Positions 1 through 499 of a stretch of 499 nucleotides of DNA are shown piece after piece. The DNA is from a phage. The first letter of the stretch is position 1; each line of letters starts with the position of its first letter. The notes beneath the pieces were generated by a model, which was not told the origin of the DNA, did not search any database, and saw only the letters and a program-made list of their open reading frames with translations. The stretch lies in the sequence record EF517075.1; one strand, written 5' to 3'. Made by a program: the position numbers and the translations under genes.

Positions 1-23
1 TTCAGGCAATCTTAGAAAAAGAT

Positions 24-239
24 ATGCTGCATCTATGTAAGCAGGTCGGCTCAGGTGCGATTGTCCCCAATGGTAAACAGAAGGAAATGATTGTCCAGTT
101 TCTGATACACGATATGGAAGGATTGATGACATTCGTAGTACGTACATCATTTCGTGAGGCCATTAAGGACATGCACGAAGAGTATGCAAATAAGGATTCT
201 TTCAAACAATCTCCTGCAACAGTACGGGAGGTGTTCTGA
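24..239 (+). CDS. Hypothetical small phage-like protein; probably 5'-partial, since the frame is open back to position 3 (..QAILEKD-MLHLCKQ..). C-terminus ..FREAIKDMHEEYANKDSFKQSPATVREVF, stop TGA 237-239.
   Basis: ORF track 24..239 (71 aa from the first ATG). The same frame has no stop between position 3 and 24, and there is no convincing Shine-Dalgarno upstream of ATG 24 (only A-rich cttagaaaaagat), so the true start is probably upstream of the window. Its stop overlaps the start of the next gene (TGATG), indicating a co-transcribed, translationally coupled unit. Confidence 0.6.
   Translation: MLHLCKQVGSGAIVPNGKQKEMIVQFLIHDMEGLMTFVVRTSFREAIKDMHEEYANKDSFKQSPATVREVF
226..231 (+). promoter_or_regulatory. 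Shine-Dalgarno (GGGAGG) for the CDS starting at 239
   Basis: GGGAGG at 226-231, 7 nt before ATG 239-241; lies within the 3' end of the upstream CDS. Confidence 0.6.
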
Positions 240-448
240 TGTCTGACTATCTGAAAGTGTTGCAAACAATCAAAAATTGCCCTAAGACTTTTCAGTCCAA
301 CTATGTACGGAACAATGCGAGCCTCGTAGCGGAGGCCGTTTCCCGTGGTCACATCTCGTGCCTGACTACTAGTGGACGTAATGGTGGCGCTTGGGAAATC
401 ACTGCTTCCGGTACTCGCTTTCTGAAACGAATGGGAGGATGTGTCTAA
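239..448 (+). CDS. Hypothetical small basic protein (69 aa), phage early/accessory-region type; function unknown
   Basis: ORF track 239..448. ATG preceded by GGGAGG with 7-nt spacing; start overlaps the upstream stop (TGATG) and its own stop overlaps the next start (TAATG 446-450). By hand count about 9 K/R versus 3 D/E (net positive), three Cys, no obvious hydrophobic transmembrane segment. Confidence 0.7.
   Translation: MSDYLKVLQTIKNCPKTFQSNYVRNNASLVAEAVSRGHISCLTTSGRNGGAWEITASGTRFLKRMGGCV
433..438 (+). promoter_or_regulatory. Shine-Dalgarno (GGGAGG) for the CDS starting at 448
   Basis: GGGAGG at 433-438, 9 nt before ATG 448-450; embedded in the last codons of the upstream CDS (..K R M G G C V *). 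Confidence 0.6.
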
Positions 449-499
449 TGTCTTGTGACCTTGTGACTATTCCACGCGATGTGTGGAACGATATACAGG
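448..499 (+). CDS. Hypothetical small protein, 3'-partial (runs off the window); N-terminus MSCDLVTIPRDVWNDIQ
   Basis: ATG 448-450 overlaps the TAA stop of the upstream CDS (TAATG) and is preceded by GGGAGG at 9 nt. The frame is open to the window end (17 codons visible). Not in the ORF track because no stop falls inside the window. Confidence 0.55.
   Translation, partial: MSCDLVTIPRDVWNDIQ
452..467 (+). repeat. Perfect tandem direct repeat of an 8-mer, CTTGTGAC x2, inside codons 2-7 of the third CDS
   Basis: Direct reading: cttgtgac (452-459) immediately followed by cttgtgac (460-467). Short enough that a chance occurrence is possible. Confidence 0.4.

Follow-up and report, generated by a model that had tools for sequence, protein, structure and literature searches.

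Described systems related to the locus

Genes 5.5, 5.7 and 5.9 of bacteriophage T7 are the closest described relatives of the phage DNA analysed here, a stretch of 499 nucleotides (nt) from sequence record EF517075.1 that is referred to as the window. In the T7 reference records (V01146 / NC_001604, locus 16851-17517), genes 5.5, 5.7 and 5.9 are annotated at positions 16851-17150, 17150-17359 and 17359-17517, respectively. They are flanked by DNA polymerase (gene 5) and gene 5.3 upstream and by exonuclease (gene 6) downstream. The locus has reportedly been annotated since the T7 genome sequence of 1983. T7 is an obligately lytic phage, and its genes 1.6-6.3 are middle (class II) genes that are transcribed by T7 RNA polymerase (PMC5569994).

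The H-NS oligomerisation domain is the target of the product of gene 5.5 (gp5.5), which makes growth on lambda lysogens possible (PMC8501957, PMC11482910). The product of gene 5.7 (gp5.7) is a winged-helix-like protein of 7 kDa that represses the host RNA polymerase at the T7 promoters A1-A3 and inhibits chiefly the sigma-S holoenzyme (E-sigmaS) (PMC5569994; bioRxiv 10.1101/262279). Alanine scanning has identified six residues of gp5.7 that are needed for this activity, F18, Q19, R24, S35, L42 and W52 (PMC5569994). Mutations in gp5.7 allow T7 to escape from the dCTP-deaminase and dGTPase defences (bioRxiv 10.1101/2021.04.26.441389), and RADAR2 is also activated by gp5.7 (PMC11482910). The product of gene 5.9 (gp5.9) forms a parallel coiled coil and mimics DNA; it prevents RecBCD from binding DNA (PMC9836394) and blocks DNA loading by MukBEF (PMC7617805).

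The T7 locus resembles classical translationally coupled junctions in its overlapping stop and start codons, in the location of the Shine-Dalgarno (SD) sequence within the upstream open reading frame (ORF) and in a predicted hairpin that pairs with the SD sequence. Termination-reinitiation coupling with unmasking of the SD sequence is known at ATGA/TGATG junctions in the trp operon of Escherichia coli and in the coat-replicase pair of the RNA phage MS2. The T7 locus differs from these systems in that its hairpin is confined to the T7-type clade and the coupling is putative.

Identity and gene content of the window

The best match of the window was wild-type phage T7, with 97.2% identity over all 499 bases and no gaps (T7 16912-17410; megablast against 50,697 phage records, 189 hits). 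The window is collinear with T7 without indels and has the same frames, the same two one-base overlaps, the same SD sequences and the same flanking order as T7 genes 5.5, 5.7 and 5.9. It is part of the class II (middle) region of a derivative of the Autographiviridae phage T7 and contains the end of gene 5.5, the whole of gene 5.7 and the start of gene 5.9. The locus and all three products are already known. Taken as a whole, the best explanation is that of a T7 derivative with small host-takeover genes that overlap by one base, in which gene 5.7 is inferred to be coupled to gene 5.5; its probability is estimated at about 0.97. The identity, the gene content and the anatomy and conservation of the overlaps in this explanation are direct observations.

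Three ORFs are present on the + strand, at 24..239, at 239..448 and from 448 onwards, the last of which stays open past the end of the window. The ATG at position 24 is the internal codon Met29 of gp5.5, and the true start of gene 5.5 lies 61 nt upstream of the window. The codon phase of this gene begins at window position 3 with Gln22 as the first complete codon, so that 78 of its codons are present and residues 1-21 are missing from the window. Of the 52 codons of the third gene, 17 precede the end of the window. A first-pass annotation, which was made from the sequence alone, had described genes of about 60-80 amino acids (aa). This size fits gene 5.7 (69 aa), whereas complete gp5.5 and gp5.9 consist of 99 and 52 aa, respectively.

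Gene junctions and their conservation

Both junctions of the window combine the two features of a coupled pair, a stop/start overlap and an SD sequence within the upstream ORF (Table 1). The overlaps of the stop and start codons and the GGGAGG motif inside each upstream gene had been pointed out in the first-pass annotation and were confirmed by reading the sequence. The same annotation stated that the window lacks a promoter and a terminator, which agrees with the scans: no site resembled the T7 promoter consensus at ≤3 mismatches, no intrinsic terminator was found in the window, and a single sigma-70-like site was detected on the minus strand (0.7 expected by chance). The nearest T7 promoters, phi4.7 (13915) and phi6.5 (18545), are both located outside. 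The window had no match in Rfam at E<=1.

The packing of these genes was compared in 14 annotated Studiervirinae phages (genera Teseptimavirus, Teetrevirus, Przondovirus and Helsettvirus) and in 79 full-length IMG/VR loci that were found with gp5.7. In the annotated phages, the 5.5/5.7 junction is always TGATG, TAATG or GTGA, and the junction between gene 5.7 and the next gene is always TAATG, TGATG or ATGA. A GGAGG-type SD sequence precedes every downstream start in this set. The core of the 5.7 SD sequence (GGGAGG/GGAGG) is invariant in 13 of the 14 phages, and K11 has GAGGG. Among the IMG/VR loci, the upstream junction has an overlap of one or four nt in 76 cases (-8, +1 and +2 in the remaining three), and the downstream junction has such an overlap in 78. 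The upstream overlaps are of the types TGATG/TAATG (1 nt) and GTGA/ATGA (4 nt), whereas the downstream junctions comprise 15 TAATG or TGATG and 63 ATGA or GTGA. The stop codons at the junctions vary only between TGA and TAA, both of which can share the A of ATG. The length of gp5.7 is 69 codons in all 79 relatives. These comparisons indicate that the conserved packing is more than chance.

The start codon of gene 5.7 is GTG within a GTGA four-base overlap, not ATG, in 34 of the 79 IMG/VR relatives. In the Klebsiella-phage-like loci of this set (L049-L098), gene 5.7 starts at locus position 401. The gene that follows gene 5.7 in the IMG/VR relatives has about 40-135 codons and is often no homologue of gp5.9.

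Probable translational coupling of gene 5.7 to gene 5.5

A consensus fold of 15 sequences predicts that the SD sequence of gene 5.7 pairs with UCUCCUG near the end of gene 5.5 (Table 1). Partition-function calculations give this SD sequence a probability of being unpaired of 0.03 (window) and 0.02 (T7), compared with 0.36-0.38 in controls in which the SD sequence was fixed in place and only the flanks were shuffled. A value as low as that of the real sequence was reached by 1% of the shuffles for the window and by 0.5% for T7. For gene 5.9, no occlusion of the SD sequence is predicted (probability of being unpaired 0.39, control 0.27). A genetic observation also bears on the first junction: among escape mutants of T7, three independent frameshifts in gene 5.5 behave like mutants of gene 5.7 (bioRxiv 10.1101/2021.04.26.441389).

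Genes 5.5, 5.7 and 5.9 are co-directional and belong to one transcription unit, and their products are made from the same long + strand transcripts. In the proposed mechanism, a ribosome that reaches the stop codon of gene 5.5 would open the hairpin a few bases from the start of gene 5.7, and ribosomes that end gene 5.5 would thereby aid the start of gene 5.7, both by local reinitiation and by melting of the hairpin that hides its SD sequence. The predicted fold and the frameshift mutants suggest that a functional coupling of gene 5.7 to gene 5.5 is fairly probable. A strict dependence of gene 5.7 on gene 5.5 through the hairpin would be a minority possibility. The corresponding model for the T7-type phages, in which the hairpin hides the 5.7 SD sequence and gp5.7, which sets off the RADAR, dGTPase and dCTP-deaminase defences as well, comes solely from ribosomes that completed gp5.5 immediately before, is likewise tentative. 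The translational coupling proposed in the first-pass annotation for all three genes is plausible at the 5.5/5.7 junction, for which the predicted hairpin and the frameshift mutants speak, whereas the unmasked SD sequence of gene 5.9 speaks against it at the second junction. Since the 5.9 SD sequence is predicted to be unmasked, independent initiation of gene 5.9 would be as likely as reinitiation, and with an accessible SD sequence this gene can probably be initiated independently too.

Several results weigh against the coupling. The hairpin shows no covariation to speak of in the 15-sequence alignment, where its pairs are nearly all invariant. The pairs also sit in conserved Ser-Pro and Arg-Glu codons, and for both reasons covariation is uninformative for this hairpin. 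Regions of 91 nt at both junctions fold no better than shuffled sequences (z -0.4 and -1.3). Strong SD sequences at good spacing would permit independent initiation, and the phenotype of the 5.5 frameshifts could stem from loss of a 5.5-5.7 fusion or from loss of gp5.5. In 60 relatives that are not of the T7 type, the 5.7 SD sequence is no more paired than in the controls (0.31 vs 0.34).

An occlusion of the 5.7 SD sequence across the whole family was considered and rejected. Shuffling of the whole segment gave 0.28 vs 0.43, but this procedure moved the G-rich SD sequence away. With the SD sequence fixed, the values were 0.28 vs 0.34 with a median rank of 0.5, and the effect was gone. The predicted occlusion persists only in the T7-type clade.

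Table 1. Coordinates of the features in the 499-nt window
Feature	Position	Strand	Basis
3' part of gene 5.5, residues 22-99 of 99 plus TGA (237-239)	1..239	+	T7 identity, Pfam, PHROG
Predicted hairpin, UCUCCUG (211-217) / 8-nt loop / CGGGAGG (225-231), pairing the SD sequence of gene 5.7	211..231	+	Consensus fold
GGGAGG, SD sequence of gene 5.7, 7 nt before ATG	226..231	+	Sequence; core kept among relatives
TGATG, stop of gene 5.5 (TGA 237-239) and start of gene 5.7 (ATG 239-241), common base A239	237..241	+	Sequence, T7 annotation
Complete gene 5.7, 69 aa plus TAA, winged-helix-like inhibitor of host RNA polymerase	239..448	+	PDB 5lgm, PHROG 1334, annotation
GGGAGG, SD sequence of gene 5.9, 9 nt before ATG	433..438	+	Sequence; GGAGG invariant in 14 phages
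TAATG, stop of gene 5.7 (TAA 446-448) and start of gene 5.9 (ATG 448-450), common base A448	446..450	+	Sequence, T7 annotation
Gene 5.9, first 17 of 52 codons, acidic coiled-coil DNA mimic	448..499	+	16 of 17 residues identical to T7 gp5.9
Differences from T7	17, 101, 106, 112, 189, 197, 250, 260, 266, 276, 292, 339, 382, 454		Alignment to T7

Alternative explanations

The overlaps could reflect genome compaction only, with genes 5.7 and 5.9 translated independently from their own SD sequences and no coupling. Such an arrangement is consistent with the near-consensus GGGAGG of both SD sequences and their spacing, with the exposed 5.9 SD sequence, with the ordinary pairing of the 5.7 SD sequence in the 60 relatives outside the T7 type and with overlaps of 1-26 nt at many other T7 junctions. 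It is somewhat unlikely in view of the almost complete pairing of the 5.7 SD sequence in the predicted ensemble of T7-type sequences and of the 5.5 frameshifts that phenocopy 5.7 mutations (bioRxiv 10.1101/2021.04.26.441389). In proteins that diverge by about 25%, the overlap is moreover kept at 96-99% of the junctions, even though a short spacer would lengthen the genome only trivially. The two genes could also be expressed substantially as one fusion protein by -1 ribosomal frameshifting near the end of gene 5.5. The GenBank and RefSeq records of T7 contain a joined coding sequence, 'possible gene 5.5-5.7', and PHROG 17900 is a family of 170 positions that spans gp5.5 and gp5.7. No stop codon interrupts the 5.7 frame in the 15 codons ahead of its own ATG (window 194-238), and the SD-like GGGAGG lies shortly before the 5.5 stop, as at some known shift sites. 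The same phage provides a comparison in gene 10A/10B, a programmed -1 frameshift product that is listed as a joined product like 5.5-5.7. Gene 10 has a defined shift site of the G_GUU_UUC type (PMC5009743), whereas 5.5-5.7 has no in-phase X_XXY_YYZ slippery heptamer between 194 and 239; none is present in the 5.5-frame codons at 195-239 (GAT TCT TTC AAA CAA TCT CCT GCA ACA GTA CGG GAG GTG TTC TGA). The 5.5/5.7 fusion was found not to be expressed (PMC5569994), and gp5.7 alone is functional and folds as a protein of 69 aa (PDB 5lgm). In relatives with the four-nt GTGA/ATGA overlap, the 5.7 frame is +1/-2 relative to gene 5.5, not -1, and therefore one shift mechanism could not be conserved across the family. 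A 5.5-5.7 fusion protein is unlikely, and its substantial expression is very improbable.

Two other explanations concern the nature of the DNA and its coding strand, and both have next to no probability. The first-pass annotation had recognized phage DNA, as the identity to T7 bears out, and had assigned it to an early or accessory (moron-like) operon of a temperate phage or prophage with uncharacterized products. Small overlapping genes with internal SD sequences are indeed common in lambdoid early regions too, and the PHROGs category of gp5.5 and gp5.9 is 'moron, auxiliary metabolic gene and host takeover'. A search of phage and prophage sequences, which that annotation had suggested, supported only the phage part of its proposal. 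The 189 megablast hits and the 897 hits at lower stringency were all phage records, and those listed or inspected were all T7-like, whereas megablast found no match to the window in 5,426 complete E. coli genomes (20,395 records). Because of this absence, the window is not prophage DNA. The suggested inspection of the flanks for integrase, repressor and recombination genes led to T7 replication and structural genes instead: these make up the surrounding 12.5 kb in T7, including primase/helicase, and no integrase, repressor or exo/bet is annotated in the 12.5 kb around genes 5.5-5.9 of this obligately lytic phage (PMC5569994). A promoter and a terminator of their own, as expected around inserted moron genes, were not found in the scans of the window, and phi4.7 and phi6.5 are the nearest promoters. 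The annotated flanks and the lack of matches in bacterial genomes refute the temperate origin. The products are also not uncharacterized, since gp5.5, gp5.7 and gp5.9 all have published functions and two of them have solved structures. As for the coding strand, an ORF of 116 aa runs on the minus strand (352..2), with 116 uninterrupted codons in both the window and T7. The same frame contains one to three stops in phages 13a, vB_Yep_9, EG1 and HZP2, in which the + strand genes are intact, and no minus-strand gene is annotated in T7 across the 12.5-kb region. Substitutions among relatives are mostly synonymous in the + frames (70-86% of the differences between T7 and seven natural relatives). 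This preponderance of synonymous differences among natural relatives shows that the + strand frames are under purifying selection. The antisense frame (2-352) was rejected on account of the stops in the four relatives and is regarded as a by-product of sense codon usage.

Mutational signature of the T7 copy

The window differs from T7 by 14 single-base changes (Table 1), all of which are G:C-to-A:T (nine C-to-T and five G-to-A on the + strand). Seven are missense and seven are synonymous. At 12 of the 14 sites, the T7 base is present in every other aligned phage (10 other aligned sequences), and at none of the 14 do the outgroups side with the window against the T7 base. The differences are derived on the lineage of the window, whose ancestor is therefore T7 itself. 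Among natural relatives, transitions run in both directions and are accompanied by 29-55% transversions.

The 14 changes are compatible with neutrality, with seven missense changes against 66% non-synonymous changes expected (P=0.15), and the lack of nonsense changes is unremarkable (P=0.45). The window keeps all frames, stops, starts and SD sequences intact. Three missense changes, at 112 (gp5.5 G58D), 266 (gp5.7 A10T) and 339 (gp5.7 A34V), are located in columns that are invariant in the 14 natural phages of four genera. As judged from this conservation, gp5.5 and gp5.7 of this copy may be functionally weakened despite their intact frames.

The exact variant of the window was not recorded in the phage, IMG/VR, GTDB-genome and JGI-metagenome collections, the last three of which were searched with a 38-base pattern spanning three variant sites. 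The exact variant of gp5.7 had no record in the assembly index. The closest parallels are the mutagenised T7 isolates K, P and P82 (AY264775, AY264777 and AY264778, respectively), which have a T7 backbone and exclusively G:C-to-A:T changes in the region. Isolates P and P82 carry five changes each, and isolate K carries 10 changes and two ambiguous bases. Most of the changes in these isolates are not common to the window. Isolate K (569-1067, aligned to window 1-499) has the changes of the window at 101 and 250, and position 189, an A in the window, is an N in this isolate; about 0.7 shared sites are expected by chance. The common sites could be mutational hot spots or could reflect partly shared ancestry. 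Unlike the window, isolate K has nonsense changes in gene 5.7 (W52*, 394) and gene 5.9 (W13*, 486), and its 5.9 SD sequence is altered by a G-to-A change (434); these genes are therefore dispensable in the laboratory.

Nitrosoguanidine mutagenesis of T7 is documented in PMC8923235, which cites Springman 2010 and Bull 2003. The likeliest source of the window, to judge from its base changes, is a heavily mutagenised laboratory lineage of T7 treated with an alkylating agent of the nitrosoguanidine type.

The proteins encoded in the window

The gp5.7 encoded in the window matches PDB 5lgm over residues 1-69 of 69 (E=2.8e-41) and PHROG 1334 (E=6.7e-39). It is identical to T7 gp5.7 at 66 of 69 residues, the changes being A10T, S13N and A34V, and keeps all six residues that were found by alanine scanning to be needed for activity. 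The changes A10T and A34V affect alanine codons in which positions one and two do not vary among the 14 phages.

The gp5.5 portion belongs to Pfam family PF11247 (Phage_T7_55; 172.7 bits at a cut-off of 25, E=2e-51, profile positions 22-99 of 99) and is assigned to PHROG 1452. It differs from T7 by T56I, G58D and D84N. The G58D change affects a glycine codon that has the same bases at positions one and two in all 14 natural phages, and the allele that carries it may therefore be impaired.

In T3 and in the Yersinia phage phiA1122, the gene 5.5 allele is strongly diverged across window positions 1-~200, as read at alignment columns ~100-330. From window position ~200 on (end of gene 5.5, gene 5.7 and start of gene 5.9), both phages are about 93% identical to T7. 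The alignment indicates that this step is a putative recombination (mosaic) boundary inside gene 5.5. Phage phiA1122 is otherwise classified with T7.

The part of gp5.9 in the window has a single change relative to T7, R3C. Full-length T7 gp5.9 matches PF25708 (Phage_T7_Gp5_9) with 27.8 bits at a cut-off of 24.5, and also matches PHROG 9014 and PDB entries 8b1r and 9gmb; its structures are deposited as 8b1r and 9gmb/9gmd, and the window holds only 17 of its 52 codons.

Significance for T7-type phages

The value of the locus as a discovery is small, and its use lies in correction: the window is class II DNA of a lytic phage, its first ORF is truncated by the window and its products are characterized. 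Because of its pure G:C-to-A:T signature, this copy should not count as natural variation when sequences are compared. For T7 specialists, the predicted masking of the gene 5.7 ribosome-binding site would provide a concrete explanation of the reported polar effect that frameshifts in gene 5.5 exert on the triggering of 5.7-dependent defence. If the dependence on the hairpin is true, it would fix the ratio of gp5.5 to gp5.7 and would explain how frameshifts in gene 5.5 allow escape from the nucleotide-depletion defence.

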